Source: a virus. Taken from it: a stretch of 64,000 nt of DNA. The stretch is from the IMG/VR virus record IMGVR_UViG_3300020229_000001, positions 30,386 through 94,385 of that record. The stretch is one strand, 5' to 3'. The notes below the pieces were generated by a model. It saw only the letters and a list, made by a program, of their open reading frames with translations, was not told the origin of the DNA and made no database searches. Made by a program: the position numbers and the translations under genes. Shown here in pieces: positions 206-21,931 of this stretch (its first letter is position 1; every line of letters begins with the position of its first letter).

Positions 206-1477
206 ATTATTCTTCGTCTTCTCCTTCAGCTTCTTTTCGCAGTTTTTCTGCCGCTTTGATTGCTTTTTCTTTTTCCATCAATTGCTTCATTAGCCCCTTA
301 TTGGGAGACTTAACGCCAGTGAGGTTTGCCTCATCGGCCTCGGACAAGAGTCGCACTGTTTCCCCTTTACGATCCACTTGGAACAAACCTCCAGCTTGGA
401 TGATGTCCAAAGAAAACTTGGCGGCGTCAGCGTAGTCCGCTGGCTCTGCTCCGCTCGTTGCCGCCCCGTACTTGCCAAACAATTCCTTCTCGTTAAACCA
501 CAGGGCAGCCTGCATATCGGCAATGGTAACAACAATCCCGGCTTGAGCAAGCCTAGCCTGAGCCTGCTCCATCGTTGTCTGCTGAAACGCCCGCTCGTTA
601 CTGGCCCGAGGTGCGCCAAGCGGCGTTGTGCGATCCTGCACCCAATTCTTGGCGGCTCTTCGTAATTCGGTTTTTCCCTTGAAGCTGCCAGTTCTGAATA
701 CTTTTTCAAGGTGCTCCGCAAACTCAAGCATCGCGCCGCTGTCTTCTAGTAATTTGTGGAATTCTTTTTTCGACCATCTGGGCGCGTCTTCTCCGTAAAG
801 GTAGGGCTCTTCAACTCCTTTTTTAATGAGCACTCGGTCGGTATATTCCTTGCCTTTTTTGAGCGCCTGATTTCTGTTGTATTCCTCAATCAACGAGTCT
901 TGAAACCGCTCAAATTGATGCCCTTCCTTGAGAGGATCATACTTAAATGAGCGACCAAGAATTCGATTCCACGTTCTGGTATACCAAAGGTCGGCGGTTA
1001 GCGTTGAGTAGTCGCCGTGGAGGTTATTAATGAAAGATCCGATCTTTGGCCCAAAGACCATAAACCCGGTCACCATTTGATTTTTGCCGCCCTCAACAGA
1101 CAGCGGCTCCCCGTTGTAATACAGGGAGGTGTCTTGCTTCAGATTCTTGTTCCAATTTGCAACAGTGTCCGTTTTGAACAAAAGGGCTCGGAGCTGACTT
1201 GGGGTATGCCTTGTCAGCAACTCGTGCAATTTCAGTATGTTGTTTTCAATCGCGGCAGTTTTATCGCCGAATGTGCCATGCAGTGCGGTGACAATTTCTG
1301 GAAGGGTTTTGCCATTTTCTAACATTAGCGTTACCCGAGTTGCCATTTTGCCATTCTCGAAGACGTCGTTGCCCTGAGACGCAATCCCGAGAACCGCATC
1401 GAAAACAAGGCTCTTGTCTGCGTCGTGCTGGGGAGACCCAACCTCGAGCCACGGAAAGAGTTGCGAGTACATTCCCT
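196..1477. repeat. Copy 1 of a ~1.28 kb imperfect direct repeat (copy 2 at ~62719-64000)
   Basis: Same sequence at offset 62,523; 13 aa differences over the 421 aa compared, plus many synonymous changes. Confidence 0.95.
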
Positions 1478-4400: not shown

Positions 4401-7400
4401 TTGAGAATTGAGGTCAGCAATAAGCTTTTCTGCAAGTGGCTTCCCTATTGTGTCAGCTACCTCCTGAGCAGACAGTCCGGGTTTATTTATTACTGATACA
4501 GGAAGGTTTGATCCATCTGTGTTTTGGTATGCACTGACATGATACTTTCCGTCACCGTCATTTATTAGGTCAATGGCTGAGACATGTTTACTTAGGGAAT
4601 ACCGATCAGCTTGCGCTTCTCCTCCGGTCCAGCCAATCCAATTCTTGCCGTCAGCAACAGCTTTTTGAAGTGCGTGCTTGAATAGTTGAATGGGCCAATC
4701 TTTGCGGAATGGTGCGTCGGCAACGCCGTCTTGACGCATTGCTCCTGCGTTCATTAAGGCTGTCCATTCCTTGCGCTCTTCAGGTGTTGCCGCTTGCCCT
4801 TTTGCTTCAATTTCACGCACCCTATTATAATCGCGAAGTTGTTCATTTTTGTACCCTCTTTTCCTAGCCGCCTGATGCAGATCAGATTGCAACTCTTCAA
4901 TCAGCCTGCCAGTTCCAAAGTCTTGAGTGCGCATATGCGCAACATAGTTTGGAACGTCTGGAAAGTGGCTTGAGCGAAACTCTCCAACTCCAACAACATC
5001 GCTTTCTCCCCTGCCATCAATTCTGGCTTGATCTAATGTGTCATAAGTGCCTTGTTCTCCATCAATAAATTCAACATCAAAAGATCCATCGTTTAATTTT
5101 TTAAATGAAGCAATTGGGTCAATTTCTGTTTTAGACGGCATTCTAAGAACAACCTCTTCGTAGTTTGTGCCGCCGGGAAGCTTGTATTTGGAGTATTGCG
5201 TCTCGTCTTCTCCGTACTCAGAATCGATTTGGTTGGTCTCAGAAACGAACTCTTCCGCTTCTGGTCTACTCATCCCAAACATTTCCATTGCAGATTTCTC
5301 TGCTTCCTCAATTGTGTTAAATTTTGCAGCGCCTCCCCACTCTTCAGCTTCAGAGTAGAACTCGCCTTCAAAGGACTTTGCTTCTCGCATCCTCTGCGTC
5401 TCAAACTTTGCAACGTAACCGTCTTTCAAGAACTGCTTAACGTCATCTTTCGTGACATATCCTTTCTCCGCCTGCGCTGCGTCAATAAACTGATTGATGC
5501 CGCTCCATTTCATTTCGTCAGGCTTCACGCCACTACCCTTCTGCGGGTCCAGAATGCCCCTTATTTGCTCCGCACTGGCCCGATTAGGCATCTTGTTTAA
5601 TAGAACCCGTCCAGCCTTGCTGTAGAACCCGGGGGCGACCTTTGTAGGGTCTTCCTCACGCTCTGGCATGAAGCGAATGCCTGACGGGATTTTGCTAGAT
5701 GCCCACATGCTCCCGCCTTGCGGATCTGGTCTGCCAGTTTCCGTATCAAATAATTTTTCTCTTCGTAATGTAGCCTGTTTTGATATTGGCTCTCCGTATA
5801 GTTTTGTTGCACCAATGCTTTGAGCATATTTTGCAATTTCTCGGTACAAAGCTTCTCCGTATCCTTGTTTTTCAAACCCGGAAGAATTGGCAGACAGCAC
5901 CACCTTCAGGAGCTCTGGGTCATACGGATCTCTAGTGACAGTTGCGCTAGCCGCAACCTTGTTAGACATTTCCGGGTAAATGTAAATGTGCGTGTCTGGG
6001 TCTTCTTCAATTTCCTCAACTCTAGATTTGTATTTTGGCAACCTTGCCTTCATTACGTTCAGCTCTTCTTGAGTTGGTACGCGACGGTATTCATCTTCCA
6101 ATTTCTCAGGTATAAACCGGACCTGCGCTTCTGCTGGCTGAACCGTTGCCTTGATTTCACCAGTGCCTTTTGGGTCGTACTTAGCAGAGACTGATCCCAA
6201 ACCTTTTAGGATACTACCACCGAGCGCAGGACGCTGTTCTTCTTTAGCCTCCTGTTCGGGCATAAACCGGGCCTTGTACGGGATCGGGTACTTATACTCC
6301 GTGTTTGCGTTCTCTTCGGCAGCAGTGTGCGAATCAAGGCGGAATGATTTGATGATCTGGTCAAAGCTAGACTGTTTATCGAGCTTGCGTTCGGATCGGC
6401 TAAACTTGTTCCGGTCTAGGTCTGGAATAGACTCAACGTCGGGCACATTTGGATTTGGTGCGCCGAGCATCTTTTCGTAAATGGTTCGCTTGAGCTTTGC
6501 AACATTTGGGTCTGCATCGAGTCCCTGCCAGCCCGGGACACTTGCGTCGGGGTTCGCAAGGTTCGGAAGCAGCACCGTTCTAAACTCGTTCCAAAATTTT
6601 TGTGTGTCGCCGCCCCAAGGCTCAAACACTCCCTTGGCATATTTCTCATAAAGCCCAACCTTCCTACGAAGGTCGCTAATATCCCAAGCAGTTGTGTAAA
6701 AATTGCCAGCCTTTGAGAGGTGCAATTGCAATGGGACGATCTGCCGAATCTTTGGAGAAAACGCCTGATAGTTGCCTTTGTCATTCAACCGGGAGGCGTA
6801 ATCGATATCAAGCACCGTCCCGTCGCCCCGAGTCATTAGGTCGTCGTACTTAAACAACAGTTCCTTCATTGAGGCTGGAACAATACTTTCAGGAAGTGCA
6901 GCAATTGCCGCACGCTGCGCTGGAGTCATTTTTCCAGTGTAGTGCAGGTCTTCATCATCTTTTCCCTGCCCGCCTTTGATCGCCCGGAACCGTCCCAGCT
7001 CAGATGGATCTCCAGCGTTATCGATGGCATCACGGACCATTTGCACCCGGCGCTTAATATGCGCTACGGTTTCCTTGTTTTTGCGTTCTTTTGGCTTCCC
7101 GGTGGCCTCGTCGTAAGCAATCTGACGTTCTACTTGTACTCGCCCACCGACCGGGACTTCGAGTCCAACTAATTCAGGATGTAATTCTCCAAATCCCCGT
7201 TCCTTGTTTGGAACATTATCCCCAGTCGTATCGTCTTGGTGATAAATCCAACTACCTTCAGATGCGTTGTTGTCAGTTAGGTTAACCGTCTGCACTACCT
7301 TACCATCTGCGTCCGTAACTACAGCCACTGGAATCGTCTCAAATTTCCCTGTGTCCTTAAAATACTTGTTAAGCAACTCTTTTGAGTTTTTTACGTCTTT

Positions 7401-10400
7401 TGGCGTAATGGGCGCAGCCACCGCTTCTCCCGGCTCTGCGTCAGTAAAGTCGCCGTCGTACTTCTTCATCTCCCGCTCGACGTTGCGTATCGCACGCATT
7501 ACCTCAGGGCTGTACGTTGCGCCAACAAGCCCAGAAGTCCACTGTTTGTACACCGCTGGCCCTGCAATTGCGTACAAGTGATTCAACGCAGATTTGACGT
7601 TGTTGCTACTGACACGAGAAGCCAACCAGTTAATTCCTCGCTGCGCTGGAGACTCTGGGTCGCCAAAGAACCTTCCTGCGTGAGCTTCTGCGAGAGTTTC
7701 CTCCCGCATCAATTCAACAATCTTGTTCTTGTTAAAGTCGTTTGCCGCTTCATCCCAAACTCCAGCGGCTTCAGCGTAATCCTGAACTTGTTCTGCTGTC
7801 TTTCCTTCTAAATATTTTTTGTAAAATTTGCCAAACAGATCATCCCGGGACATTCCGGGCTCCGCAGGAGTGATTTGTCGCACATTGCCATTTTCATCAA
7901 CAGCCTCTGTGCCGAATATTTTGTTGAACAAAGGTGCGATCCGCTTGCGGTATTCGTCCTTGCCAAACAAGCCGTGCCCAACAACTTCGTGAGCAAGGAC
8001 GTTTGAGATAGCCTCCCCAGAAAGCTCTGCCTTTTTTAAAGCGTTTTCAACATTCACAAACACCGTATCTTTGGCAGGGTCCATCGTAAACCCGTCCTTG
8101 GCGGTGCCTTTCCCAATCATAATGCCGTCAGCGGTTGGATTCTTTTCTAACGCCTGCTCAATAGTCATTGGTGCTCCAACCCCATTGAAATTAGGGTTTT
8201 CCGTAATCATCTTGTCGATAATTTGGCTAGATGTAAGCAACTCAATGTTCATGTTGCTGTTAGGAGTCAGCACCCCGTTTATGAGGTTTGACACTTTCCC
8301 TAGCGACAATTTAATGCCATCCTCGAACGCTTGCCGGGCTTCCGGGGGCGCAACTATGTTTTCCTGATGGAGTCGATAAGCAAACTCGTAATCTGCTTTG
8401 GCCTTAGCCGCTTCAGGTGTATTTGCCCCGTTCACCATTTCGGCAAAATGCGTTTTCTGAGCCCGATCAAGGCGTTTTTCAGACTGCTTGATGACCTTGT
8501 CCCAGTTCAAATTTGTGACATTTTCTCGAGATTCTGGGCTTAACCCAAGCATAACCCTTTGAGCCTGTCGCATCTCTGCGTCTCGGTTCATTTTGTTGCG
8601 AATCGGATCATTCCCTACTAATCCTCCGAGAACCTGCCCGTGAATAAATCCATAGGTCGCAAACTCAGCCCACATTTGTGCAAACTCTTGAGCGTCCTTG
8701 TCTTCAAGTACTCCCATTGCAACCATCATTGGCAGCATTGACACGTTGTGTTGCACAAAGACGTTTGCGTTTTTTTCAATAAAATCCAACGCTTTGCCGC
8801 CACCAGCTTTTTGCGACCAGTTCAAAAATCGTTGCACCTCAGGAGATGCTGATTCCATTTTTTCTAACGCCTCAAAGCGGCCCAATTCAGCGCCGGATAA
8901 CCTTCCAGCTTTAAGTAGCTGCTGCCCAAGGCGAGGCGCAGCCGCAATCGCCTTACCAGCAAGCTGAATTCCAAGCCCAGTTCCTGCGCCTTTTAACGCC
9001 CCGGCCAGCGGATCATCAGACGCCAATGCACCAGCGCCAGCGCCAAGTAGAGTCGACCCGGCATATTTTACAGGTTTTGGAAGGCTTTCAAAGGCTGTTT
9101 TAGACCGATCAATGGTGTCTGCAATGTTGCCAAGTGGCTTTTCGAGCCACCCGGGCTGCTCTCGGGCAATTGCCTCCGCTTCACGCTGCGCTTGCAGTGC
9201 CGCGCTATCAGCGGCGTACATAACATTGCGAGCCTCACCAGTCTTTCCAGCCGCTCTCAACCCTCGACCTATTTGCTGACCTAACATGCTCAAATCTCGC
9301 ACAACTGCCCCGCCCAACCCAAACACGTTTAATGGCGATGTCATGGCAATTGCGCCAACTTGTTCAGGGTCTTCCCGTAGACGATTGGCTTCTTTTATTT
9401 GAGCTTGCACCCCAGTTTCAGCGGCTGCTTCTGCTTGCAATCGACGGTTAGCCCTCGCTGCTTCAATATTGCCTCCAAATCCAAAAACAGCGTCTTCTGC
9501 TGGGGGCATCAACTTTTCAACAACATCAACCCAGTATTTTTTAACGGCAGGATCTTGCCACAGGTCATCAATTGTTCTGGCCAAAACAGCGGGATTTTTT
9601 TCCCTCTGCATGTGGTCGATATACTTTGCATTCATCCGAGTTGCAAAGTTCTTCCTAGCTTGATCCATTGCTGGAGCAGCCGCAGCTTCACGCAATGCAG
9701 CTTCTTGCTCCATAGAGATGGCAGGAGCAATTGATGGGTCTGCTAGAGTCCCTTCCGCAGTGGCTTTAGCAATGCCAACCTTAGCCTTGTCCCAAAGCAT
9801 AGCTCTACCTTCAGAAAAATCCTTTGTTGCCTTTAAAAGGTCTTCTCTAGCCATCAAAAGGGCATCGCCAAACACCCGAGCGGACCGATACGTTTTGTCT
9901 CGGAGCGACAATTCAGCGTCTCGGATTTGCTGTTCGTTTAGTCCCTTTTTTTGCTCTTCAGTGAGCGTTTTGCCTTTCCCGAAATCTTCAGGGCTACCGA
10001 CATACACTGCGCCTGTAAGAGCATCCTTTGCTAGCCTGCCAGCGCCAGCAGCAAGAGGAGGCAAAGACGCCAACATTCCAACCCCGGCCTTCCCTGCGTC
10101 TGCAATTAAATCAAACGCACTTGTATCCTTGTTCCACCTGTAATCGAACAGAGACTGCAACTGCACAGGGTTTTCGGCCATGTTGTACCAAGGAACTGTC
10201 TTGTGTAGCTCCTCAAGGTCGTGCGGGTCGGTGATTCCTTTGAACACCGTTTCCGTAATCCCCTTGCGGGTGTTAGGATCAGTGATTCCAGCGTATGCAT
10301 TAAACTTGCCTGTTGGGCCAACCGGGACTGGGGCAAACTGCCCAGAGCCGAGTGCTCCGCTGCCAATCAACGAAGACTGTTCTGGAGGCGCAGTGCTGCC

Positions 10401-10613
10401 GACCATTTCGGGACGAAACATCTCGCCGCCACCAGACAGCGTGCCACCAGAAGTCTGCATTCCGGGGGATTCCCCCTTGAATGCAGCTAGAATTTCTTCA
10501 TCAGAAATGCCTTTTGCCTCTTCCTTGCTGTAAATAGGCTGACTGACAGATGGCTGTTCTCCCTTAAACGCAGCCAGAATTTCTTCGTCTGAAATCTTTG
10601 GAGTTTCAGCCAT
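207..10613 (-). CDS. Giant (3468 aa) polyvalent virion/ejection protein
   Basis: Last gene of the ejection cluster. Contains zincin HEVVGH (7974-7991) plus EETLAE, a GNAT-like QGYGEALY, an EELQSD-type polyvalent-protein domain, a Kinase-PolyVal-like domain (GAEHQV..RIRLHNEFFPET..EQPYV..DAHEGNVV..FVID) and a C-terminal GPKIGSFINN..TADLWYTR..DMQAALW domain. Confidence 0.85.
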   Translation of the reverse strand: MAETPKISDEEILAAFKGEQPSVSQPIYSKEEAKGISDEEILAAFKGESPGMQTSGGTLSGGGEMFRPEMVGSTAPPEQSSLIGSGALGSGQFAPVPVGPTGKFNAYAGITDPNTRKGITETVFKGITDPHDLEELHKTVPWYNMAENPVQLQSLFDYRWNKDTSAFDLIADAGKAGVGMLASLPPLAAGAGRLAKDALTGAVYVGSPEDFGKGKTLTEEQKKGLNEQQIRDAELSLRDKTYRSARVFGDALLMAREDLLKATKDFSEGRAMLWDKAKVGIAKATAEGTLADPSIAPAISMEQEAALREAAAAPAMDQARKNFATRMNAKYIDHMQREKNPAVLARTIDDLWQDPAVKKYWVDVVEKLMPPAEDAVFGFGGNIEAARANRRLQAEAAAETGVQAQIKEANRLREDPEQVGAIAMTSPLNVFGLGGAVVRDLSMLGQQIGRGLRAAGKTGEARNVMYAADSAALQAQREAEAIAREQPGWLEKPLGNIADTIDRSKTAFESLPKPVKYAGSTLLGAGAGALASDDPLAGALKGAGTGLGIQLAGKAIAAAPRLGQQLLKAGRLSGAELGRFEALEKMESASPEVQRFLNWSQKAGGGKALDFIEKNANVFVQHNVSMLPMMVAMGVLEDKDAQEFAQMWAEFATYGFIHGQVLGGLVGNDPIRNKMNRDAEMRQAQRVMLGLSPESRENVTNLNWDKVIKQSEKRLDRAQKTHFAEMVNGANTPEAAKAKADYEFAYRLHQENIVAPPEARQAFEDGIKLSLGKVSNLINGVLTPNSNMNIELLTSSQIIDKMITENPNFNGVGAPMTIEQALEKNPTADGIMIGKGTAKDGFTMDPAKDTVFVNVENALKKAELSGEAISNVLAHEVVGHGLFGKDEYRKRIAPLFNKIFGTEAVDENGNVRQITPAEPGMSRDDLFGKFYKKYLEGKTAEQVQDYAEAAGVWDEAANDFNKNKIVELMREETLAEAHAGRFFGDPESPAQRGINWLASRVSSNNVKSALNHLYAIAGPAVYKQWTSGLVGATYSPEVMRAIRNVEREMKKYDGDFTDAEPGEAVAAPITPKDVKNSKELLNKYFKDTGKFETIPVAVVTDADGKVVQTVNLTDNNASEGSWIYHQDDTTGDNVPNKERGFGELHPELVGLEVPVGGRVQVERQIAYDEATGKPKERKNKETVAHIKRRVQMVRDAIDNAGDPSELGRFRAIKGGQGKDDEDLHYTGKMTPAQRAAIAALPESIVPASMKELLFKYDDLMTRGDGTVLDIDYASRLNDKGNYQAFSPKIRQIVPLQLHLSKAGNFYTTAWDISDLRRKVGLYEKYAKGVFEPWGGDTQKFWNEFRTVLLPNLANPDASVPGWQGLDADPNVAKLKRTIYEKMLGAPNPNVPDVESIPDLDRNKFSRSERKLDKQSSFDQIIKSFRLDSHTAAEENANTEYKYPIPYKARFMPEQEAKEEQRPALGGSILKGLGSVSAKYDPKGTGEIKATVQPAEAQVRFIPEKLEDEYRRVPTQEELNVMKARLPKYKSRVEEIEEDPDTHIYIYPEMSNKVAASATVTRDPYDPELLKVVLSANSSGFEKQGYGEALYREIAKYAQSIGATKLYGEPISKQATLRREKLFDTETGRPDPQGGSMWASSKIPSGIRFMPEREEDPTKVAPGFYSKAGRVLLNKMPNRASAEQIRGILDPQKGSGVKPDEMKWSGINQFIDAAQAEKGYVTKDDVKQFLKDGYVAKFETQRMREAKSFEGEFYSEAEEWGGAAKFNTIEEAEKSAMEMFGMSRPEAEEFVSETNQIDSEYGEDETQYSKYKLPGGTNYEEVVLRMPSKTEIDPIASFKKLNDGSFDVEFIDGEQGTYDTLDQARIDGRGESDVVGVGEFRSSHFPDVPNYVAHMRTQDFGTGRLIEELQSDLHQAARKRGYKNEQLRDYNRVREIEAKGQAATPEERKEWTALMNAGAMRQDGVADAPFRKDWPIQLFKHALQKAVADGKNWIGWTGGEAQADRYSLSKHVSAIDLINDGDGKYHVSAYQNTDGSNLPVSVINKPGLSAQEVADTIGKPLAEKLIADLNSQSDPVTAYAKADGLDLDIGGEGMTGFYDKILPNEIGKYVKQWGAKVETGEVEGKKEYVIQGNPNIAPTMTFTNRSHAVVALNNRGRGEGGEVVEIGENPKIWKVAITPEMRSSVEGGQARFMPDGNPKESGDFAEKEEYERILNSRQSREGEVSRAGSSQNKQGSRAPSENLGSVFERSVRGKDSESEQVRGETESRRASEAAKRAQDTRLVDAARQHGALLDHRDFLERWRASGYKSGAEHQVILGNENGKVEKRTNIPMFEENWGDYFDRIRLHNEFFPETKITVKGIHDQAKESEANVQGNFSDLVTGRVTGSDPGAYVVTEQPYVKILDPLSINQIDSYLNQRNFFRIVRGNLFEFYNPKAKTFLRDAHEGNVVSGLGPDGKEAIFVIDVPMRYANASDANDIKAFNRKLFTKMVNGSISREKYDEIKPFLTDPSASGALEGAQVRFMPDNENIPGALEGIKIEPKEEERLPALASIAPLPKTITDERGMFSVVIGAKPGEHGYTYRTASELRDQLKTVSGQKAAVETWGELQLKKQRQLELLAKADEAAKNAKKPEKTAEFEAKKAAYAEKVAALDTQIEEMRSQFPEKMQNMSPEDAAWKAQVKKLNRSFEEVSLKATPAPFTANPLGIRSMAELGDSVHDILKSDGFNGILKDFFGLDGLEIRPIAGTWQGKVEPSFDLVHPELTFDKAKQITQLLTLAFAQDAGITYKPSIDLKEGTQAAYLIHSTKLTDDQLKLAFDKAREVGVDVSTTTDGKGIKALNFGTEDFASKLSEIQKSASIDQSYETIVASELYETEKIFKGRDNQRVLPVWLQATSGGQSLLQRSIDSLLIDYAKAAAAQGYIFDPALYAKRYGLSDSDAKYIKDKLYPVDPMARSASPLLAGTEILPVRSTYTLAGKRETAVPDMIHALQNRAASDGVILPGDYSPRAMDIISSVVADEVQQHMARAALNPKSPNAIGWYDAALKRMKGMYSQLFPWLEVGSPQHDADKSLVFDAVLGIASQGNDVFENGKMATRVTLMLENGKTLPEIVTALHGTFGDKTAAIENNILKLHELLTRHTPSQLRALLFKTDTVANWNKNLKQDTSLYYNGEPLSVEGGKNQMVTGFMVFGPKIGSFINNLHGDYSTLTADLWYTRTWNRILGRSFKYDPLKEGHQFERFQDSLIEEYNRNQALKKGKEYTDRVLIKKGVEEPYLYGEDAPRWSKKEFHKLLEDSGAMLEFAEHLEKVFRTGSFKGKTELRRAAKNWVQDRTTPLGAPRASNERAFQQTTMEQAQARLAQAGIVVTIADMQAALWFNEKELFGKYGAATSGAEPADYADAAKFSLDIIQAGGLFQVDRKGETVRLLSEADEANLTGVKSPNKGLMKQLMEKEKAIKAAEKLRKEAEGEDEE

Positions 10614-10616
10614 AAA

Positions 10617-12689
10617 TTACTCTTTTGAGGAAGTATTCCATCCGCCATCAGCGTTCCATCCGTTCTCAAACTGTGATGGCGCAGGTGCAGAGAAATACGA
10701 AGCGTGAAACCCGGGCACTTTGAAGTATGTCAGGGATCCAAAAGCTTCCTTTTTGGGGTGTTTTAACTCATCAAGGTTCGGAGGGATAAAGCTGTTGTTT
10801 TTCAACGCAATGTAATCTTTAACAATCGGGTTTAGTTTCAAAAATTGCTCACGTTTATCTTTGGGCATTTCCCCCTTTAAAGTGCCAGTTGCGTCATCAA
10901 AATACTCACCTTTCAATTTTGCGTGCTCAATCAATGCTTGCTCTAGATCTTTCCCTCCGAGTTGCTCTTTCAAGAACTCCTTTGTCTTCAGTAGCGGATA
11001 TTTTACAGGCAACTTGATAGGCGAAATGTTTGGGTTTTCGCTTTTCAAAATAGACTCAATATTTGTCAACTGAGCGTTCACCTGATCCGCAGACGTGTTG
11101 TAAGTGTTAAGCATCAAATCTTGCATTGTGCGGACATCACGTTCATCAAGCGTAGCCCCAGAGTTCCAAAATTGCACTTTTTTGGCAATGCTCTGCCATC
11201 CGCTCAAACCTGAAAATGCGTGTTTTGTTTCTTTGAATTGGGCTTCGGTAGGAGCTTTTCCAGAAGCAAATTGAGCAAACAAATCCATCATTTCTTGATG
11301 GACTGCCCCCAATGATGCTTCAGCATTATTTTTACGAGCAATTTTATCTTCCGCCACGGCTGTAAGCATGCGCTGCATTGCGTCTTTACGAGTGTCCATC
11401 AACTTTGATGTCGGATGCCTTTCGTAATTATTTGCCATTGCCGTCACTTTGGCTTCTCGGGAAATATCAAGGCGCTGCTGTTTCAATCCTTGAGTTGCAG
11501 CATGTTCTTCAACGGTGCGAATTTCGGCCCTGCGTTCTTTTGTCACATCTATGTAATCAACGTGAAAATAAGGAACTTGCGTGGTCGGATCTTTGGACAC
11601 CGCCATAACCTCTCCAAAAGGATATTTCCTGTTGAATGTAAGCGCCTGAAGATTTGCTAAATCTTTTCTTTCTGGATAACGAGTCAGCATGTCTCGCTGA
11701 TTAACTTTTTGAATGTCTGGTACTCTAGCCAAGGCCCCTTTTGGTTTTGAGTCTTCAGGCTGAAGTGATGGCTCTCCTAACATTCCCAATGCAGGCAGAT
11801 ATTTAACGGCATCAGTCTGGGAATTGTCTTTTTCCCCGGCAGGAGTTCCAAGTGCAGGAAGCTCTTCTTTTTTTGATTCTTCTTTTGGTTTTGGAGGTTC
11901 AAAAGTTGGTAGTGGCAAGCTTGAAAGCCTTCCCTTTTTGATAATTTCAGCCTCTTGCTCTGCTGGCGTTAATTCAACAGGAACCGCAATAGGAGCCGCC
12001 ACAGGAATAACTTTAGGCGGAGCCGCTGTGGAAGCCACAGGAACAACCTTAGGTGGAGCGGCGATAGGAGCAACTGAAAGCGACATTGCAGGCCCACCCG
12101 TTGGGGCTCCGTTTAATGTCATTGTTGGCATGCTTGGAATAAGAGGAGAAGCAGTGGCAATGCCTTGCAGTGCTCCAACTTGGTCAGTAGAAGATGCCTG
12201 CGGGAGCGGGAGCGGGTCAAGTGTGGGGGCAATGCGTGTGTTGGTTGCTCCAGTTGATGCATCACCTTGATCGCCTTCATCACCCCCAGCCCCAATAACC
12301 GGGTCTAAAGAAAACTGTTGCTTTCCTTTCCCAGAAGAAACAGCGTCCACCCGGGCCATCGCCTCTTTGTGCATGTCCTCGTTTCGCTTTTCTTGAGCCG
12401 CCTGTTTCTGCTCTTGTAAAGCTTGCTGTCTCTCAGCTAACGCTGTCCTTTTGGCGTCTTTCTCTGCCGCATATCTGGCGCTGATTCCAGCCCCAATGGA
12501 CTTGATTGCGCTCTCGATCCCTTGAGCAATGTAAGGCTTGCCTTCAGGAACCACCCATTGAGCACCTGCACTAATTTGAATTGGATTCTGACCAAATGAC
12601 AACGGACGAATACCTGCCAGCGCATTATAATTAATGTTTGGCGTGGCTAATTGAATTGGAATTCCAGCGGTGTCGTAAAACAAAGGCAT
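10617..12689 (-). CDS. Internal virion/ejection protein (~690 aa)
   Basis: Lies directly before the giant gene; coiled-coil and Pro/Ala-rich linker. Start set at MPLFY, just after the upstream stop. Confidence 0.65.
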   Translation of the reverse strand: MPLFYDTAGIPIQLATPNINYNALAGIRPLSFGQNPIQISAGAQWVVPEGKPYIAQGIESAIKSIGAGISARYAAEKDAKRTALAERQQALQEQKQAAQEKRNEDMHKEAMARVDAVSSGKGKQQFSLDPVIGAGGDEGDQGDASTGATNTRIAPTLDPLPLPQASSTDQVGALQGIATASPLIPSMPTMTLNGAPTGGPAMSLSVAPIAAPPKVVPVASTAAPPKVIPVAAPIAVPVELTPAEQEAEIIKKGRLSSLPLPTFEPPKPKEESKKEELPALGTPAGEKDNSQTDAVKYLPALGMLGEPSLQPEDSKPKGALARVPDIQKVNQRDMLTRYPERKDLANLQALTFNRKYPFGEVMAVSKDPTTQVPYFHVDYIDVTKERRAEIRTVEEHAATQGLKQQRLDISREAKVTAMANNYERHPTSKLMDTRKDAMQRMLTAVAEDKIARKNNAEASLGAVHQEMMDLFAQFASGKAPTEAQFKETKHAFSGLSGWQSIAKKVQFWNSGATLDERDVRTMQDLMLNTYNTSADQVNAQLTNIESILKSENPNISPIKLPVKYPLLKTKEFLKEQLGGKDLEQALIEHAKLKGEYFDDATGTLKGEMPKDKREQFLKLNPIVKDYIALKNNSFIPPNLDELKHPKKEAFGSLTYFKVPGFHASYFSAPAPSQFENGWNADGGWNTSSKE

Positions 12690-12690
12690 A

Positions 12691-13203
12691 CTAAGAGCCC
12701 CCAAAGGAGATTTGACCTAAATTCGGGACTTGAAATTGTTTCACCTCGGGCGGGGTTGCCGTCATTTGGTTTGCCGCCCGGGCAGCTTGTGGGCCTTGAG
12801 ACACTTGAGCTGCTTGCGGTGACATTCTTGGCGATTGGGTTGTAGCAGCGGGGGAAACGGGCGCTGCTGCCGCTCCGGGTGCTTTAAGCACGCTCGCGTT
12901 GGTTATGCCCTGAGGGGCAGAATATGCCGTTGGCTGCTGCACTGCTGGTGTTACTGAAGCGGAAGTAGAAGGTGATGCAGATGGCGCTGGAAGCCCTTGT
13001 GCAGGCTCTGTCTTTACTGGGTGAGCATCTCCATACGCTTTGGTGAAATCACCGTAGCTCTGTCCTTTTGCGGGGGGAGGAGCGTCAGAGTGAGCCGCAG
13101 CAAACTCACGATTTTTTGTAAAATCCGAGCCAAAAGTAGCATTTAAAAAGTTGGTTCCACCTATTTTTTCAATAAAGTCAGGGTTTTTAAATTTTCCGCC
13201 CAT
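12691..13203 (-). CDS. Low-complexity putative internal virion protein (MGG start, C-terminal QFQVPNLGQISFGGS)
   Basis: Ala/Pro/Gln-rich; ejection-cluster position; shares its C-terminal motif with the two adjacent genes. Confidence 0.7.
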   Translation of the reverse strand: MGGKFKNPDFIEKIGGTNFLNATFGSDFTKNREFAAAHSDAPPPAKGQSYGDFTKAYGDAHPVKTEPAQGLPAPSASPSTSASVTPAVQQPTAYSAPQGITNASVLKAPGAAAAPVSPAATTQSPRMSPQAAQVSQGPQAARAANQMTATPPEVKQFQVPNLGQISFGGS

Positions 13204-13205
13204 AA

Positions 13206-13763
13206 TTAAGATCCTCCAAAGGTTAAGCCCGAAATGCTCGGGAGACGAAAGTTGCTCTGCTCTTGCGCTTGTTGTGTAAGAAAAGCTCCACCGCCACCCG
13301 GCTTATTATAAACTGGAGCATTTTTTACTGCTTTTGTCATGGAAGTTGGTGCGCTAAAATTAGTTGGCGACCCATCGCTCGTAGACATTGGTCCCACAGC
13401 TTGCATTGGTCCCACAGCTTGACTAGCTGTTGTATCTGGAGCAGTTGCCGTAACTGGTCCGCCAAGGGTAGCCTGCCCAACAATGTTTGGATGCTGAATG
13501 TCATAAAGTTTTTTTGCCTGAACGTCAGAGGCTGCTTTTGCTTGAGCATCCGCATTAGCTGCGGCCAAGCTATTTGCCTTCATTAAGTTAAGCCCTACGC
13601 CCGCAGAAACAAGTCCAATTGGCCCCATGAACGGGGCAGTGGCAACCAGTACTGGAGCAAGTTCTTTTGGAACCGCTTTAGTAAATTCTTTTGGAACAGC
13701 CTTGGCTATTTCATTGGGAATCATTTTTGCAACGGCACGAAATCCAGATGACAACCAGCTCAT
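13206..13763 (-). CDS. Putative internal virion protein (C-terminal NFRLPSISGLTFGGS)
   Basis: Amphipathic N-terminus with KAVPKE repeats and a hydrophobic segment; shared C-terminal motif. Start set at MSWLSSG. Confidence 0.7.
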   Translation of the reverse strand: MSWLSSGFRAVAKMIPNEIAKAVPKEFTKAVPKELAPVLVATAPFMGPIGLVSAGVGLNLMKANSLAAANADAQAKAASDVQAKKLYDIQHPNIVGQATLGGPVTATAPDTTASQAVGPMQAVGPMSTSDGSPTNFSAPTSMTKAVKNAPVYNKPGGGGAFLTQQAQEQSNFRLPSISGLTFGGS

Positions 13764-13764
13764 A

Positions 13765-14247
13765 TTATATTCCTCCAAAAGTTACTCCAGTCGTGCGGGG
13801 CATCTGGAATTGTGATTGCTTAGAATTGGGCATAGCTGGGTTTACTGGGCTCAAGTTGCTTCCAGCAAGATTGGCCGCAGTCCGGGGTAGATAGTATGCC
13901 GCTGCGCTTAAATTAGATAGCTTGGCTTGATTTAAGGCATTAACGTCAATTGCGCCACCAGTAATGGCGGACCCAGCCATTCCCGCCTGAGCTGCCGCCG
14001 CCTGTGAGGCAGTAGAATCTTTTGCCTTCTGATAAGCCTGCGCTCGAAGGAGGCTTTGTTGCGCCTGAGAATTACTCTGGTTCATGCCTAGCTGCGCTGC
14101 GTTATTTTGAGCGTCAATCATGGCTCTGCGCTGGGCTTCCGCTGCATCCTGCGCTGCTGCCCCCTGTTGTTGGCGCATCAATTCAATCTGCGCGATCATC
14201 GGAGTGTAATCAGGAGGTGGTGGTGCTGAGTAATGTGATCCGCCCAT
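13765..14247 (-). CDS. Putative internal virion protein (MGGSHYSAPPPPDY start, C-terminal QFQMPRTTGVTFGGI)
   Basis: An MGG..APPPPDY N-terminus is typical of podovirus ejection/pilot proteins; Gln/Ala-rich helices. Confidence 0.7.
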   Translation of the reverse strand: MGGSHYSAPPPPDYTPMIAQIELMRQQQGAAAQDAAEAQRRAMIDAQNNAAQLGMNQSNSQAQQSLLRAQAYQKAKDSTASQAAAAQAGMAGSAITGGAIDVNALNQAKLSNLSAAAYYLPRTAANLAGSNLSPVNPAMPNSKQSQFQMPRTTGVTFGGI

Positions 14248-14253
14248 AATTTG

Positions 14254-15087
14254 TTATTTCTTAAATAGCCCGGGATTGCCAGCAAATCCTCCTGCAATTG
14301 ACCCTGCCGCGCCAATACCAGCCCCAACAAGAGCATTGCTTTGATCTGCGTTATGCTGCGCCCCTTGGAGCATAGCCTGTTGGTAGTTCTGCCAGTCTTT
14401 TTTGTTAGCTTCCGCCGCTTGATTGGTAGAAGACATCATCTGATTAATCCAGTCTGTCGTTGTCTGAGCAGCGCCTTGCGTGCGCCCCAGCATCGCTTCT
14501 TGAAATCCAGCCCGCTGTTGCATTCCCTGAGCTTTAGCGGCCTGCTGTGCGCCCAGAATCGAACCAACATCAATGCCTGCGGTGGGTGCTGGATTGCCAC
14601 CAAGATAAGCTTGCGCCCGATCTAGATTTGCCCGTCGCATTGCCATCCCTTCGAGCGTTCCAGCGTCGTAGAGCGCCGACTTGCCAACCGTGGAATCAGC
14701 CATCCCAGAACCAAGATATTTGGCTAACCCCGCACGTTTTGCCCATTGATCCATTTGTTTCTGCCAGTTCCCGGGCGAGAGGTCTTCCTGCATTGCGGCT
14801 GGCAGTGACTGGCGCAACGCTGCCATTTCTGGGTTGGTCTGCTTTTCAAGCTCCTTCGACTTAAAGGAGTTAATTGCAGCAATTTCGCCAGCTTGCGTTG
14901 ACATGCCATCCTGCCCCCAGATGTCAGGAGTCCAGCTTTCCAAAGGCATGTTAGCAGCAAAGCCAAGCAGCCTGTTTTGTTGGGCCATCTGTTGGGTGCC
15001 CAGAGCCGACTGCATGCCAAGTTGCGCCGCCGAAAGGGCAGGATCTGGGCGAGTGATAAAAGCTGAAGGGTCAACGGAAGATCCCAT
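14254..15087 (-). CDS. Putative ejection (DNA pilot-like) protein
   Basis: Gln/Ala/Met-rich helical protein with a C-terminal Gly-rich hydrophobic segment (ALVGAGIGAAGSIAGGF). Confidence 0.65.
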   Translation of the reverse strand: MGSSVDPSAFITRPDPALSAAQLGMQSALGTQQMAQQNRLLGFAANMPLESWTPDIWGQDGMSTQAGEIAAINSFKSKELEKQTNPEMAALRQSLPAAMQEDLSPGNWQKQMDQWAKRAGLAKYLGSGMADSTVGKSALYDAGTLEGMAMRRANLDRAQAYLGGNPAPTAGIDVGSILGAQQAAKAQGMQQRAGFQEAMLGRTQGAAQTTTDWINQMMSSTNQAAEANKKDWQNYQQAMLQGAQHNADQSNALVGAGIGAAGSIAGGFAGNPGLFKK

Positions 15088-15091
15088 AGTT

Positions 15092-15481
15092 TTAAAAGGT
15101 AGGATAGTACAATTCTCTGTTAAGTCTAGTTAATCCAAGTTTTTTCATTATGTCTTCTGAAAAATTGCCGATTCCATTGTTGTTGTTGGACGGAACTGCA
15201 ATGTAGCCCGGATTGCCTGATAGTTGAGAGTGTGTTTTCCAGTCATTCATCACCTGAACAACGTCCCTTGGCTTAGTGTGTTCAGGGTGGAACGCTGGGT
15301 ATGCTGTTGGGATAAAGACCTGATCAATGTATCCAAACAAGCGCCCATTTTTGTAATTTGCATAAACCACAATGTTTGGATGTGGCGTTATGACGTGGTT
15401 AAACGATTTTGCAAACTCTTGAAGTTCAGAGAATTCAGGAGTTCCGTCTTGTGTTTTTCTGTAATGGATGGAATTTATCAT
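15092..15481 (-). CDS. Putative GNAT-fold virion assembly protein (T7 gp13/P22 gp14 position)
   Basis: Sits between the nozzle and ejection genes; NGRLFGY strand and MKKLGLT helix-turn resemble GNAT motifs. Confidence 0.45.
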   Translation of the reverse strand: MINSIHYRKTQDGTPEFSELQEFAKSFNHVITPHPNIVVYANYKNGRLFGYIDQVFIPTAYPAFHPEHTKPRDVVQVMNDWKTHSQLSGNPGYIAVPSNNNNGIGNFSEDIMKKLGLTRLNRELYYPTF

Positions 15482-17872: not shown

Positions 17873-20800
17873 CTAGAACATTACGCAATCGGTTCCATCT
17901 CCGTATGTTATGTTGTTTATCTGCGGAGGTTGCATGGCATGCCCGTCCATTGAATCGCTTTCGCTGCGCAAATACATAACGGATGCCTGCCAATACTTTT
18001 GCGCTTGATCAAGAAAGTCTTTGTCTTCCAAATCAACCGCATGAACGCCAGCAATAATTGCGCGGGCGTTTTCAAGCGGAATGTAGTCGTAAACACTCGT
18101 GATTTCAGGGCACTTTACGCGATAAATCAAGCGAACCCACGCGGATTGCTGGCCAATGCGAATGCGCCGATACTTTGGGTTGGTCTCGGACGGGTGATAC
18201 TGCCCGATCAGCGCCATATCGTTTGAGCGCCCATAATCAAAAGCGTAGAGCGAAACATAGCCAATCGTTAGTGGCTTTTCAATGTGTTGCACTGACTTCA
18301 CTAAAATTGGATCAAGGATGGAATCGATGTAGAAAATGGAATCGATAGTGTCCCCAGTGCTCAGAAAGTCTATTCTTCCAGTGATGCTGGATGTTGTGGT
18401 TGCATGTGGCTTGGTGTCATACAGCTCCACAAAATTATCTCCAATAGCCCGGGCGTAATAAGTCGAAGAGTCAGACAATGGAACGGGAAGCGTGTCGCCC
18501 TGATTTGCCCGAACCAGAACTTGATCCCCCGTGTTTAAAATAGAATTTCCTGCAATTACTGCCGTGGATGGCTCGACTGTAAAATCGCGAGAAATATCAA
18601 GCGACAAATACCCCTCGCCAAGATTAGTAAAAACAATCGGCGTTCCGTTTTGTAAGGTTATTGAAACTTTTCCCTTTATTACAGACAACAAGTATACAGT
18701 CGATGCACTCAAAGGCGCAGGCAATACTCCCGTGGTTGAAGAAAACTTCACCCTCATGCCCGATAACAGGTAAGTCAAGTACGATGGGATAATTTCGTTG
18801 TTTGCAACTATTCCACCACTGCGAGCGCCATAAGCGTAATACGCTTGCCCAGCTCCAAGTTCTTGGACTTGCAATAAGACAGTGGCACCAGAATCCGTGT
18901 AAACTCCTGCGCTAAAATTACTTACTGCCTTTAGGTAATACGTTTGCGCTACACTTGATGGTGGTGAAGTTATTGGCAACTCGTAATCTGTTTGCAACCT
19001 TACTGGAAGGACAGTGGTGATTGCAGAAAAGTCTCCATTCCAATAATTAGTAAATCCAATCGCGAATGTTCTGGAAATAACCAAGTACAAAGTGCCACTT
19101 CCAGTTGACGTTACGTTTACGTCCGTAAAATCAGCATTTTTGACGGTGAACGAGTTTCCAGAAGACGGATTTTCAGCCCGATACGACTGCCCCTGCACGA
19201 GAGGAATCGGAAGCGTTCCAGTGGACGAGAATTGAATAAAAACACCAGTGGACGGCAACACGGAAACCGTAGGCGCTGTAGTATATCCTGTGCCTTCAGT
19301 AACGACATTTACATTTGTCACAACGCCAGTGTATTCAAACGAGAATGTTGCCCCTCCTCCCCCTGCGGGAGAGAAAGAAATTTGCGGGTTACTGTAGCCG
19401 TATCCGTAATTAGTGATTGTTATTCCCGTGATCTTTCCAGCGGAGACGGCGACTGACGCAGTTGCGCCAGTTCCAGTTCCGCTAGATCCGTCCGTGATGA
19501 GAGCGGTCAAAGAAGACGAATATCCAGAACCCTGCGTAAGTACGTTAATTTTACCGATCCCAAATTGATCCAGCACCGCAGTTGCGCTAGCGCCTGTTCC
19601 GCCTCCGCCAGAGATGTTGACGGCAGGGACGTTCTGGTATCCAGATCCGCCATTTTCAACAACGTACTCGGATACAAATGACGTTGTGATGGTGCTAGAT
19701 GCCGTTGCCGTTTTAGGAAGGCTGCTTGAGAACGTAATTGCGGGCGTTGAGCCTCCTGTCATCACGCTAATCGACGTTATTGTCACCCCCGTTGGAGGCG
19801 TAATTACAATTGTATCGTTGGATGTTGGAGAAACGGCGGCGGAATAACCTCCAACCGTAATTAAAGGAGCCAAACCAGCGGCAACTGTGGAAACGGACGG
19901 GGCAGCGGGGGTATTGGTAAATGTAGCAGACAACAAATTTGTAGCTAACCCATTGACTGTAAGTGAAGTTACGGTTGCGTTTTGTACGCCCGGGCTAGCA
20001 ATTGTGAGCTGCGGCTTTAGCTGCTGCGGGGCGCTAATGGTCACTCGTGGCGGATACAGGTAGCCCTGTCCTGACGAAGTGATGTTAATCCCGTTTACAG
20101 AACCCGTAATAGAGTTTACGGACAAAGAAGCCGCTGCATCCGATCCATATGGCAAAAGTGTAACTCCAGTGATTGTGCCGCTTCCATTGAGAACCAAGGA
20201 CGCTTTTGCGTGGAATCCGCCAGTCGAAAGACCACCAATAAAAACAACCTTTGGTAAATTTGCGACCGTGTAGCCCAATCCGCCGCTGTTAATTTGTATT
20301 GAAGCCACATAACTAAATCCAGTGGCTACGTCAGTGCCAAGGATTGCTTGGAGCGATGCCGCTGTCGTATATGTGCCGCCCACAAGAGACAAATTTGGAG
20401 CGGCTGCGTACTTGTATCCTCCAATGTCTGAAATTGTGGCCGTTGCCGTTGTGTAGCCTGCGCCCCCAGTCACCAACGTCATCAACGTGATTGGCCCGGA
20501 AACGCGAGCTGTGATAAGAGCACCTGACCCAGTTGCAGGCGGAAGCGTCAAACCAGAAACGGAAATGTTATTTTTAGTTCCGGGCGATGCTGTTGCCGTT
20601 AAAAGTTTAGCAATACTGTTCTGGCCAGACCCCGCCGTAGTCAACGCAATTGGGCTAGACCCACTCAGTGCATCCGAGTAACTGTTATGTAATGTAACCG
20701 CTGGAAGTAATTCATCTGGCAACACATACACATAATAATTCTGGCCAATAATTAACGGCTGAGGAAGGGTGCCTCCAGCAGTATTTGCTTGAACTATGTC

Positions 20801-21931
20801 CCCAGAGGAGTAATTTGGGTCGGACGTAAAAACCAATTTAGTTTGAGGACTAAATGGCTTGCGAATGTAAGTCGTCAAGTCGCTCGATGAGCCAGATAAA
20901 TAAATTGGATTTGTAGAATTTTGAGCATCACGGAGCGAAGCGTAAACCTGCAAATTTACAACAGCACTTGATCCAGAGTCAACTTGCTGGGCAAAATAAG
21001 TTGTATTTATTTGCAATGGAACTGGAAGCGGATTTGCCCCACGAATTGCAAATGTAACTTCGTTGGGAGAGTCAATCGGCACTGGAGGAACGCCATCTTT
21101 TAGCGTGACAACCGTAGAAAGCTGGGTTGGACGAGAGTCCGTAAGGTTTATCCCAGTTGAGCCAACAATAGACGACATCTTGTACGGGTTTGTCCCGTAT
21201 TGAGCGTCCAACTCGTTGTCGTAAAGCTCAACTTCAGTGCTGGATATCACTCCAGTGTAGTACTTTTGCTTGTCCTCAAGGCCCGCTGGCATTGTGCCTG
21301 TAGCAGTTAGCTGAACAGACTGCCCAGAGGATAGCTGGTGCGGGGTGCTGGAAAGTAGCGTGGTAATTGGATCAACAGCAACTGACCGAGTTGTGATCGT
21401 CACGCCATCGGGCTGGATTGTCCCGTAAGGAAAGTCGCTTTGCGCCCGGACGGTGACCAACAGTCCGTCAACGGTTGTCCCGTCTCCTAATTGCGCCCGC
21501 AATTCGCGGTTGTTGCCGTCGGTTCCAATTACCCGGATAACTTTCCCTGCATCGGCTTCATGTTCAGCAACCGCAACAAGCTGGGACGGCTGACGAATAT
21601 CCATTTGAGTCGCCACCATCCCCCGGTCGTCCCATGCCCACCCGACAGGGTTGTACATGCCCCCTTTGTTGATATTGTACTGAAAAAGCCGCCCCCTAAA
21701 GTACATTGGAGACCCATCAACATTGACTGCCAGAGGTACTTCTATGCCTCTTGGCAGGGTTATTGTCTGCCCGTCCCATCCTGAACATACATCGACCTCA
21801 GCGTTCGTATGAAAATAGTGCCCACTCTGCATGAGCACCTGAACAGCTTGCGTCAATTTCCGGAAAGCCTTGGGTTTGTCTGTGGTCCCGAGGATCTCAA
21901 GAATTTCGTCGATGATTTGGGAGACAAACAT
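17873..21931 (-). CDS. Head-tail adaptor-like protein with a ~1000-aa insertion of beta-rich repeats
   Basis: Helical N- and C-termini flank H.L.SGQ.V...GTLP.PL...YY repeats and A(T/S)A.V..G.ITGI.IT..G.GY repeats; precedes the nozzle gene. Confidence 0.6.
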   Translation of the reverse strand: MFVSQIIDEILEILGTTDKPKAFRKLTQAVQVLMQSGHYFHTNAEVDVCSGWDGQTITLPRGIEVPLAVNVDGSPMYFRGRLFQYNINKGGMYNPVGWAWDDRGMVATQMDIRQPSQLVAVAEHEADAGKVIRVIGTDGNNRELRAQLGDGTTVDGLLVTVRAQSDFPYGTIQPDGVTITTRSVAVDPITTLLSSTPHQLSSGQSVQLTATGTMPAGLEDKQKYYTGVISSTEVELYDNELDAQYGTNPYKMSSIVGSTGINLTDSRPTQLSTVVTLKDGVPPVPIDSPNEVTFAIRGANPLPVPLQINTTYFAQQVDSGSSAVVNLQVYASLRDAQNSTNPIYLSGSSSDLTTYIRKPFSPQTKLVFTSDPNYSSGDIVQANTAGGTLPQPLIIGQNYYVYVLPDELLPAVTLHNSYSDALSGSSPIALTTAGSGQNSIAKLLTATASPGTKNNISVSGLTLPPATGSGALITARVSGPITLMTLVTGGAGYTTATATISDIGGYKYAAAPNLSLVGGTYTTAASLQAILGTDVATGFSYVASIQINSGGLGYTVANLPKVVFIGGLSTGGFHAKASLVLNGSGTITGVTLLPYGSDAAASLSVNSITGSVNGINITSSGQGYLYPPRVTISAPQQLKPQLTIASPGVQNATVTSLTVNGLATNLLSATFTNTPAAPSVSTVAAGLAPLITVGGYSAAVSPTSNDTIVITPPTGVTITSISVMTGGSTPAITFSSSLPKTATASSTITTSFVSEYVVENGGSGYQNVPAVNISGGGGTGASATAVLDQFGIGKINVLTQGSGYSSSLTALITDGSSGTGTGATASVAVSAGKITGITITNYGYGYSNPQISFSPAGGGGATFSFEYTGVVTNVNVVTEGTGYTTAPTVSVLPSTGVFIQFSSTGTLPIPLVQGQSYRAENPSSGNSFTVKNADFTDVNVTSTGSGTLYLVISRTFAIGFTNYWNGDFSAITTVLPVRLQTDYELPITSPPSSVAQTYYLKAVSNFSAGVYTDSGATVLLQVQELGAGQAYYAYGARSGGIVANNEIIPSYLTYLLSGMRVKFSSTTGVLPAPLSASTVYLLSVIKGKVSITLQNGTPIVFTNLGEGYLSLDISRDFTVEPSTAVIAGNSILNTGDQVLVRANQGDTLPVPLSDSSTYYARAIGDNFVELYDTKPHATTTSSITGRIDFLSTGDTIDSIFYIDSILDPILVKSVQHIEKPLTIGYVSLYAFDYGRSNDMALIGQYHPSETNPKYRRIRIGQQSAWVRLIYRVKCPEITSVYDYIPLENARAIIAGVHAVDLEDKDFLDQAQKYWQASVMYLRSESDSMDGHAMQPPQINNITYGDGTDCVMF

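Follow-up and report, generated by a model that had tools for sequence, protein, structure and literature searches.

A conserved C-terminal (F/L)-G-G-x peptide on small proteins of a freshwater phage gene module: a candidate docking tag of ejection proteins

Why would three neighbouring phage genes, whose products are otherwise dissimilar, all end in the same short peptide? The question is raised by a stretch of DNA referred to here as the window, which comprises the final 64 kb of an IMG/VR virus record of 94,385 bp (IMGVR_UViG_3300020229_000001) from an uncultured lake-water phage. Proteins of 160, 185-190 and 170 amino acids (aa) end in QFQMPRTTGVTFGGI, NFRLPSISGLTFGGS and QFQVPNLGQISFGGS, in that order, and the spacing F-x2-P-x6-F-G-G-x-stop is the same in all three. 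Related phage contigs numbering well over a hundred encode counterparts that have this ending. The genes and their terminal peptides, termed tags below, are located in the window as follows.

13765-14247, minus strand: tagged protein 1, 160 aa, family A (F2), the near-universal tagged family, with an MGG start
13768-13815, minus strand: tag of protein 1, SQFQMPRTTGVTFGGI, with the stop codon at 13765-13767
13206-13778, minus strand: tagged protein 2, family F8, 190 aa from a TTG or 185 aa from the ATG at 13763
13209-13256, minus strand: tag of protein 2, SNFRLPSISGLTFGGS
12691-13203, minus strand: tagged protein 3, family F10, 170 aa, with an MGG start
12694-12741, minus strand: tag of protein 3, KQFQVPNLGQISFGGS

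The tag is a conserved, strictly C-terminal and modular element, which is restricted to one type of gene module, lies in a disordered context and is under selection at the level of the protein. The interpretation favoured here, and held tentatively, is that it acts as a docking or address peptide for small ejection proteins, in the manner of the capsid-targeting sequence (CTS) of phage T4 or the cargo peptides of encapsulins.

A terminal peptide shared by proteins with dissimilar bodies

An earlier reading made from the sequence only had described three adjacent genes sharing a terminal tag with identical spacing, and the translations of the open reading frames (ORFs) bear this out. Of 893 six-frame ORFs, a hidden Markov model (HMM) of the tag matches just these three; the FGGx ending recurs on no other real ORF in the 94-kb record, and the probability of an F..P......FGG. 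ending, given the three proteins' own composition, is approximately 8.5e-7 per protein. The conserved C-terminus of a 1352-aa adaptor-like protein encoded nearby (…PPQINNITYGDG…), which had been likened to the tag by eye, was discarded, as the tag HMM gives it no score. A likeness of F-x-[ML]-P to the RF[MI]P joints of a polyvalent protein encoded in the same region is offset by one residue in register.

The distribution of the tag was followed in 66 related loci, collected with a 713-aa tail hub/nozzle-like protein of the same module, from which 64 non-redundant tagged proteins were extracted. Their consensus, 14-16 residues long, is N-x-[FY]-[TS]-[ML]-P-[NS]-T-[SQ]-G-[LI]-[TKQ]-F-G-G-x, and exactly one residue follows the Gly-Gly in 61 of the 64 proteins, the remainder having none or two. 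Internal copies are absent from the 66 loci. Degenerate forms retain just [FL]-G-G-x, and in one genome the two halves of the tag are separated by about 7 residues, from which it follows that the terminal (F/L)GG-x constitutes the core. All 20 distinct complete modules, which represent a large clade of uncultured podophages, contain ORFs ending in (F/L)GG-x, with one copy in five modules, two in five, three in eight and four in two, a variation in copy number of the kind that the sequence-only reading had proposed to look for. These ORFs always lie directly upstream of a gene for a protein of 550-770 aa, between the P22 gp10-like hub gene and the large ejection-protein genes. Among 6182 ORFs of 11 near-complete genomes, all 26 matches of the tag HMM are C-terminal and located 1.5-5 kb from the hub gene, so that the strict terminal position expected of homologues holds.

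Wider searches recovered the same type of protein. A scan of IMG/VR with a degenerate DNA pattern returned at least 119 stretches; about 105 of those listed are true tags, mostly on ORFs of 130-260 aa, and about a dozen of the matches are due to chance. Wherever flanks are visible in the listed stretches, homologues of the 713-aa gene and of two further module genes, encoding proteins of 277 and 129 aa, are present. An exhaustive comparison of a profile of the last 36 residues with 1.84 billion representative proteins (E <=1e-3) gave 44 matches, namely 40 tag-ending proteins of 69-245 aa and 4 false matches of low complexity, with no enzyme or large protein carrying the tag; among proteins, the tag is thus found only on small proteins of this type. 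The last residue is S, A, T or V in 71% of 119 distinct tags, Q in 5 of them and never E, while D or E is found within the last six residues in none of the 119; together, these preferences suggest a pocket that reads the terminus. No relative was found among GenBank phages (blastn, tblastn) or in 185,579 species genomes, meaning that no cultured relative is available from these sources.

The bodies that precede the tag are dissimilar, as had been claimed. Pairwise BLASTP among the three window proteins aligns their tails only, and alignment of the families by hhalign with the tag removed gives probabilities of at most 2.4%. When the last 18 residues are removed, the 64 non-redundant proteins fall into at least 8 BLAST clusters, with the window's three proteins in three different ones, which supports the description of the tag as a modular recognition element: it is conserved on at least 8 body families unrelated by BLAST and never internal. 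The characterization of the bodies as low-complexity is correct in terms of composition, with A, Q, S, T, P, G and N accounting for 61-68% of residues, yet the bodies are not featureless, since each belongs to a conserved family with orthologues. Family A is characterized by PPP-DYxPM, a Q/A-rich helix and the motifs GG-x-D-I-N and NPA, and the 170-aa family by a conserved DAPPPAKGQ-Y motif. The 190-aa family contains three tandem [AI]P-x-E-x-x-KA repeats near the N-terminus ([AI]P-x-E-[IF]-x-KA in the window protein), followed in the 190-aa protein by a hydrophobic stretch at residues 38-56 (mean Kyte-Doolittle value 1.74) that could be a membrane segment. Overall, the tagged bodies span 84 to 408 aa, and no Pfam or PHROG domain was found on any of them, including the longest. 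When the tagged proteins and the products of adjoining genes were compared by sequence and profile with Pfam, PHROGs and the PDB, nothing informative was obtained, only noise from Q/A repeats. The one tagged protein that was folded, the 160-aa protein of family A, was modelled by AlphaFold2 (AF2) from a 21-sequence alignment as a helix at residues 15-95 and a second helix at 102-115, followed by about 45 residues of low-confidence coil (predicted local distance difference test score, pLDDT, about 50) that end in the tag.

Could the three genes be ordinary tandem paralogues of a single ancestral small ejection protein, whose bodies have drifted while the ends were kept as structured contacts, so that no portable tag exists? 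Their tandem arrangement, similar sizes, common M-G-G start and C-terminal motif would fit such an origin, as would the rapid divergence of low-complexity sequence and the differences in copy number between close relatives. Nevertheless, this explanation is judged rather improbable. The absence of detectable similarity between the bodies indicates that the common end is not a leftover of detectable full-length paralogy, contrary to the simple paralogy that the sequence-only reading had named as its possible undoing, and every body family possesses conserved motifs and orthologues of its own across a considerable range of lengths. The paralogue explanation would fall if an enzyme or another protein of evidently separate origin carried the tag, but no such case was found. 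The explanation concerns origin only and is compatible with a function in docking.

The nucleotide sequence encoding the Gly-Gly could itself be the conserved feature. In the form TTY-GGA-GGN, the codons contain GGAGG at 8-11 nucleotides upstream of the ATG of the next gene, which in most cases begins 1-4 nucleotides past the stop codon, and they might therefore be kept as the ribosome-binding site of that gene, with the one-codon spacing fixed accordingly. The enrichment of GGA at the two Gly positions (60% and 56%, vs 41% in the bodies) and the presence of GGAGG in 60% of tags are in line with this idea. However, 40% of tags lack GGAGG, and 14 Gly-Gly codon pairs are used, with all four Gly codons occurring at both positions; neither the reading frame nor the Phe before the Gly pair varies, and the other residues of the tag are encoded at too great an upstream distance to form part of a ribosome-binding site. 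Throughout the window, upstream regions are A/T-rich, and the only GGAGG sequences before start codons are those made by the FGG codons, a Shine-Dalgarno motif being found in almost no other gene of the genome. The diversity of Gly codons points to selection on the amino acids, with any role in translational coupling being secondary at most, and together with the scarcity of Shine-Dalgarno motifs elsewhere it led us to reject the Shine-Dalgarno account of the GG-x-stop end, to which we give hardly any credence. The motif-poor upstream regions would suit a host that makes little use of Shine-Dalgarno sequences; Bacteroidota would be a guess.

Module context and the docking interpretation

All genes of the region lie on the minus strand. 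In the order of transcription, the three tagged genes are preceded by those of the 1352-aa adaptor-like, 713-aa, 129-aa and 277-aa proteins and followed by those of an approximately 690-aa protein and a 3468-aa polyvalent protein.

17873-21931, minus strand: adaptor-like protein, 1352 aa
15730-17871, minus strand: tail hub/nozzle-like protein, 713 aa, the anchor gene for collecting related loci
15092-15481, minus strand: conserved 129-aa protein (F1), with a weakly GNAT-like fold
14254-15087, minus strand: untagged Q/A-rich 277-aa protein (F0), with a Gly-rich, hydrophobic C-terminus
10617-12704, minus strand: approximately 690-aa protein, placed by position only with gp15/gp20-type ejection proteins
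207-10613, minus strand: polyvalent protein, 3468 aa, at the position of a gp16-type ejection protein, with an HExxH zincin motif and a polyvalent-type kinase

This succession of hub, small proteins, approximately 690-aa protein and giant protein corresponds to the gp14/gp15/gp16-like arrangement listed in a table for T7, P22, epsilon15, SP6 and other phages (PMC8954989). In the ESM Atlas, the 713-aa protein has as its nearest named look-alike a cluster (score 0.95, TM-scores 0.62/0.84) of which 17% of members carry PF11134, the tail hub family of P22 gp10; the PF11134 (Phage_stabilise) HMM itself has no match in the phage's own genome, the 713-aa protein included. The 277-aa protein always precedes the tagged genes in related modules and starts with MGS in the window phage and with MGG in most relatives. 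The approximately 690-aa protein, which probably begins with the ATG at 12689, a single base past the stop codon of tagged protein 3, has no family match in searches of the Pfam, PHROGs and PDB type. Polyvalent proteins have been described previously (PMC5512222).

Under the docking interpretation, the three genes would encode small, elongated internal proteins, that is, ejection proteins of a short-tailed phage of the P22/T7 style, each with a body that is mainly helical or of low complexity, followed by a disordered linker and the terminal peptide of 14-16 residues. The core of this short linear motif would be (F/L)-G-G together with one small non-acidic residue and the free carboxylate. The tag would bind one common site, either a symmetric partner along the portal-core-hub axis or the inner capsid wall, and different small proteins could thereby enter the procapsid and be held ready for ejection. 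A docking or address peptide is what would be expected from a helical body, a disordered linker and an invariant peptide that recurs on unrelated bodies in variable copy number and exclusively within the ejection module. The conservation of the tag while the bodies diverge past detection supports the same interpretation.

Several points weigh against it. The sequence-only reading had called the tagged proteins virion proteins; this label came from gene order rather than from observation, and the assignment to the virion and to ejection draws on synteny and structural look-alikes, with no cultured relative in the databases searched. The nearest named look-alikes of the 160-aa protein in the ESM Atlas, P22 gp7 (0.80) and T7 gp6.7 (0.77), are leads only, with scores too low to count for more, and the HMM P22_gp7 (PF25688) finds no match in the phage's own genome. 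The binding partner of the tag is likewise a matter of inference. All carriers of the tag are non-enzymatic proteins of helical or low-complexity type, so nothing like the cargo loading of T4 or encapsulins is seen, and docking alone leaves the invariant Gly-Gly followed by exactly one residue unexplained. Of the two roles proposed in the sequence-only reading, packaging and covalent ligation after trimming, packaging or docking nevertheless appears to us the better.

Known systems provide partial parallels. In T4, dissimilar internal proteins are loaded through a common terminal peptide of 10 residues (PMC9026906). As with the CTS of IPI, IPII and IPIII, the tag is a short terminal peptide on otherwise dissimilar small proteins (PMC9026906), and in both cases relatives retain the peptide while bodies change and copy number varies. 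The CTS, however, is N-terminal, about 10 residues long and cut off by the prohead protease gp21, whereas the tag is C-terminal in every case, terminates in GG-x and occurs on non-enzymatic helical proteins of a short-tailed phage; no prohead protease family was recognised by Pfam or PHROGs among the ORFs of the head module. Encapsulin cargo proteins use short C-terminal peptides (PMC8346489), and those of family 1 resemble the tag in following a flexible or disordered linker, in alternating small and hydrophobic residues with Gly and in being attached to different bodies. The family 1 consensus, SDGSLGIGSLKRS or TVGSL (PMC8346489), does not match that of the tag in sequence. In addition, encapsulin cargoes are enzymes within a portal-less shell of the HK97 fold, while the tagged bodies lack enzyme domains and the window genome is that of a tailed phage with hub and fibre genes, in which binding of the tag to the capsid wall is putative.

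A third parallel is provided by T7 gp14 and gp6.7 and P22 gp7, whose genes also lie between those of the tail hub and the large ejection proteins (PMC8954989) and which are likewise small (90-240 aa) and built of helix plus disorder. Homology at the HMM level is absent (no Pfam match; families PF25688 and PF17570), and the single gene is replaced here by one to four genes with different bodies and one common end. In T7, short loops of gp6.7 and gp14 bridge the portal barrel and gp15 (PMC11784390). Compared with N-terminal tags shared by proteins of other phages, the tag is distinct in combining a C-terminal position, a GG-x end and a distribution on putative non-enzymatic podophage ejection proteins, and no paper describing the motif was found. 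We know of no shared terminal tag described for T7 gp14 and gp6.7 or P22 gp7.

A further possibility concerns the time at which the tag acts. It might function after ejection, anchoring the small proteins to the hub tip, to the approximately 690-aa tunnel protein or to a component of the host envelope, while their N-terminal ends (Gly-Gly after removal of Met, possibly acylated) reach the membrane as the trans-envelope channel forms. In T7, gp14 and gp6.7 are kept in the nozzle by short contacts after DNA ejection (PMC11784390), and hydrophobic stretches occur in one tagged protein and in the 277-aa protein of the window. M-G-G starts are found in 57 of 129 module ORFs and in none of 152 flanking ORFs of the same loci; in the window they occur in two tagged proteins and in a 154-aa protein (38720-39184) adjoining a 799-aa portal candidate. 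Every one of the 11 near-complete genomes encodes the 129-aa protein, as do 19 of the 20 related modules compared; its mean column identity is 65%, with invariant H29, Y51, D53, H65, R122 and E123. Its AF2 model (pLDDT 80) retrieves only GNAT-fold acyltransferases in Foldseek and VIA, and this protein may acylate Gly N-termini. The matches are weak, however, with a Foldseek E-value of 1.4e-3 or weaker and VIA Z-scores of at most 5.3 in which the two halves align separately, and nothing in the sequence tells when the tag would act. Action after ejection is accordingly considered unlikely, if worth bearing in mind.

How ejection proteins enter podophage procapsids, and in which order, is poorly understood. 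The known cases involve contacts of whole proteins, as in the T7 core and the E-proteins of P22, or the N-terminal signal of T4 that is removed by a protease. If the docking interpretation is correct, a portable C-terminal peptide would provide a simple rule of incorporation for a large clade of freshwater phages, and the tag could be used to load foreign proteins into podovirus capsids.

Ligation, trimming and modification

The invariant Gly-Gly with exactly one variable residue after it invites a chemical explanation, in which (F/L)GG-x would be a site of processing or modification: the last residue would be trimmed and the Gly carboxylate or backbone activated, then ligated or thio-modified by phage enzymes, through chemistry like that of ubiquitin, ThiS or Pup or like YcaO thioamidation. 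Enzymes that activate carbonyl groups at the expense of ATP are encoded near the module, namely a PurD-like ligase of the ATP-grasp type (6 of the 11 near-complete tag-bearing genomes), a PP-loop ATPase with a CxxCxxCC protein (3 of 11) and YcaO with TfuA (1 of 11). In the record, the gene of the PurD-like ligase immediately follows the polyvalent gene, shortly before the window begins, and a second copy is found at 61204-62475 because the record goes around the genome approximately 1.5 times.

None of these enzymes is universal, although the tag is. Five of the 11 tag-bearing genomes (G002-G006) lack the PurD-like ligase, among them a genome of 100% completeness with terminal repeats, and the proposed tie between tag and ligase was rejected on these grounds; in G003 (98% complete), all three ATP-dependent systems are missing. 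The family scans that were run revealed neither a universal peptidase nor an enzyme of the E1 or PafA type. The co-occurring enzyme sought for the ligation idea has thus not emerged.

Comparison with known Gly-Gly systems leads in the same direction. Ubiquitin-like precursors, ThiS/MoaD and Pup all carry a C-terminal Gly-Gly, and Pup, which is disordered, ends in GG-Gln/Glu and is ligated through the side chain of its last residue. The tag resembles ubiquitin-like precursors and Pup in having a C-terminal Gly-Gly followed by a residue that looks dispensable. Unlike ubiquitin and ThiS/MoaD, the modelled tagged protein is one long helix with disorder instead of a beta-grasp fold, and unlike Pup, the tag mostly ends in S, A, T or V, so that ligation of the ubiquitin or Pup kind, as envisaged in the sequence-only reading, finds no support. 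Enzymes of the E1, PafA/Dop or deubiquitinase type were not found, and the sole ligase nearby is missing from about half of the genomes. A sortase substrate was also considered. In sortase signals, LPXTG comes before a hydrophobic segment and a basic tail, and a sortase gene accompanies them; a sortase-like arrangement with an N-terminal Gly-Gly acceptor was rejected, as only a loose [LM]P-x-T-x-G occurs in part of the tags, the protein ends five residues later with no hydrophobic tail, and the module contains no sortase-like gene.

Most relatives possess an enzyme pair within the module, in the slot between the 277-aa-type gene and the tagged genes. The 182 fetched loci, 137 of which hold the hub gene, were searched for these pairs. 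A PP-loop ATPase (SGGKDS) occurs in 98 loci and a CxxCxxCC protein (PF03692) in 92, while YcaO (PF02624, E 5.5e-55) occurs in 8 and TfuA (PF07812, E 3.1e-33) in 7; the best NCBIfam matches of the latter two are proteins of McrA-glycine thioamidation, below the curated cut-offs. Examples are located as follows.

L016, 11763-13900: in-module enzyme pair
L011, 11670-12793: in-module enzyme pair
L006, L021, L033, L038, L040 and many other loci: further in-module enzyme pairs

The two pairs never share a locus in this set, a point in favour of a processing site. Against it, L077 has ligase-like and PP-loop pair genes and L071 a ligase-like gene with the CxxCxxCC gene only, and the systems are therefore not simple alternatives. 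The pairs are accompanied by a small untagged M-G-G protein, which ends in …YGYNY in L007 and L021 and appears the likelier substrate. The window phage has neither pair, which, together with G003, indicates that the tag is independent of these systems. With the fold and the last residues described above also speaking against it, processing of the tag is regarded as doubtful, about on a par with simple paralogy. The pairs themselves suggest an ATP-dependent, possibly sulfur-inserting, modification of an ejection protein.

A more speculative extension, to which only a slight chance is assigned, treats both ends of the proteins as chemical handles, the N-terminal Gly-Gly exposed by removal of Met and the C-terminal (F/L)-G-G-x. 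The last residue would be trimmed and the glycine carbonyl or carboxylate activated by whichever of the ATP-grasp, PP-loop or YcaO-TfuA enzymes a lineage has, yielding cross-linked, concatenated or thio-modified ejection proteins; such chemistry, if real, would amount to that of Pup or ThiS acting on disordered phage virion proteins. More generally, the peptide-modifying pairs of the module, taken with the M-G-G starts and the invariant end of Gly-Gly plus one residue, suggest that these putative virion proteins may be modified chemically, and chemically modified ejection proteins would be new for phages.

The surrounding record

The 94-kb record corresponds to approximately 1.5 genome lengths, the genomes of relatives being 58-64 kb. 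Positions 1-30385 of the record repeat the gene order of window positions 33000-64000 with only 77-90% nucleotide identity in a few segments, and the record is probably an assembly that joins two related strains. The window closes with an ORF (62730-63998) that encodes the C-terminal portion of a second polyvalent protein.

Among the head genes, the 799-aa portal candidate is followed by a 421-aa protein (37208-38473) that is highly charged, Q/E-rich, helical-looking and scaffolding-like, with no match in Pfam or PHROGs. The next ORF, of 337 aa (36192-37205), may encode the capsid protein; it has no Pfam match and only weak PHROG matches in its C-terminal part, to a family of unknown function and to glycosyltransferases. 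A 327-aa protein (34363-35346) with an FGE-sulfatase domain (PF03781, E 3.4e-21) is encoded amid the structural genes and is present in just 4 of the 11 related genomes.

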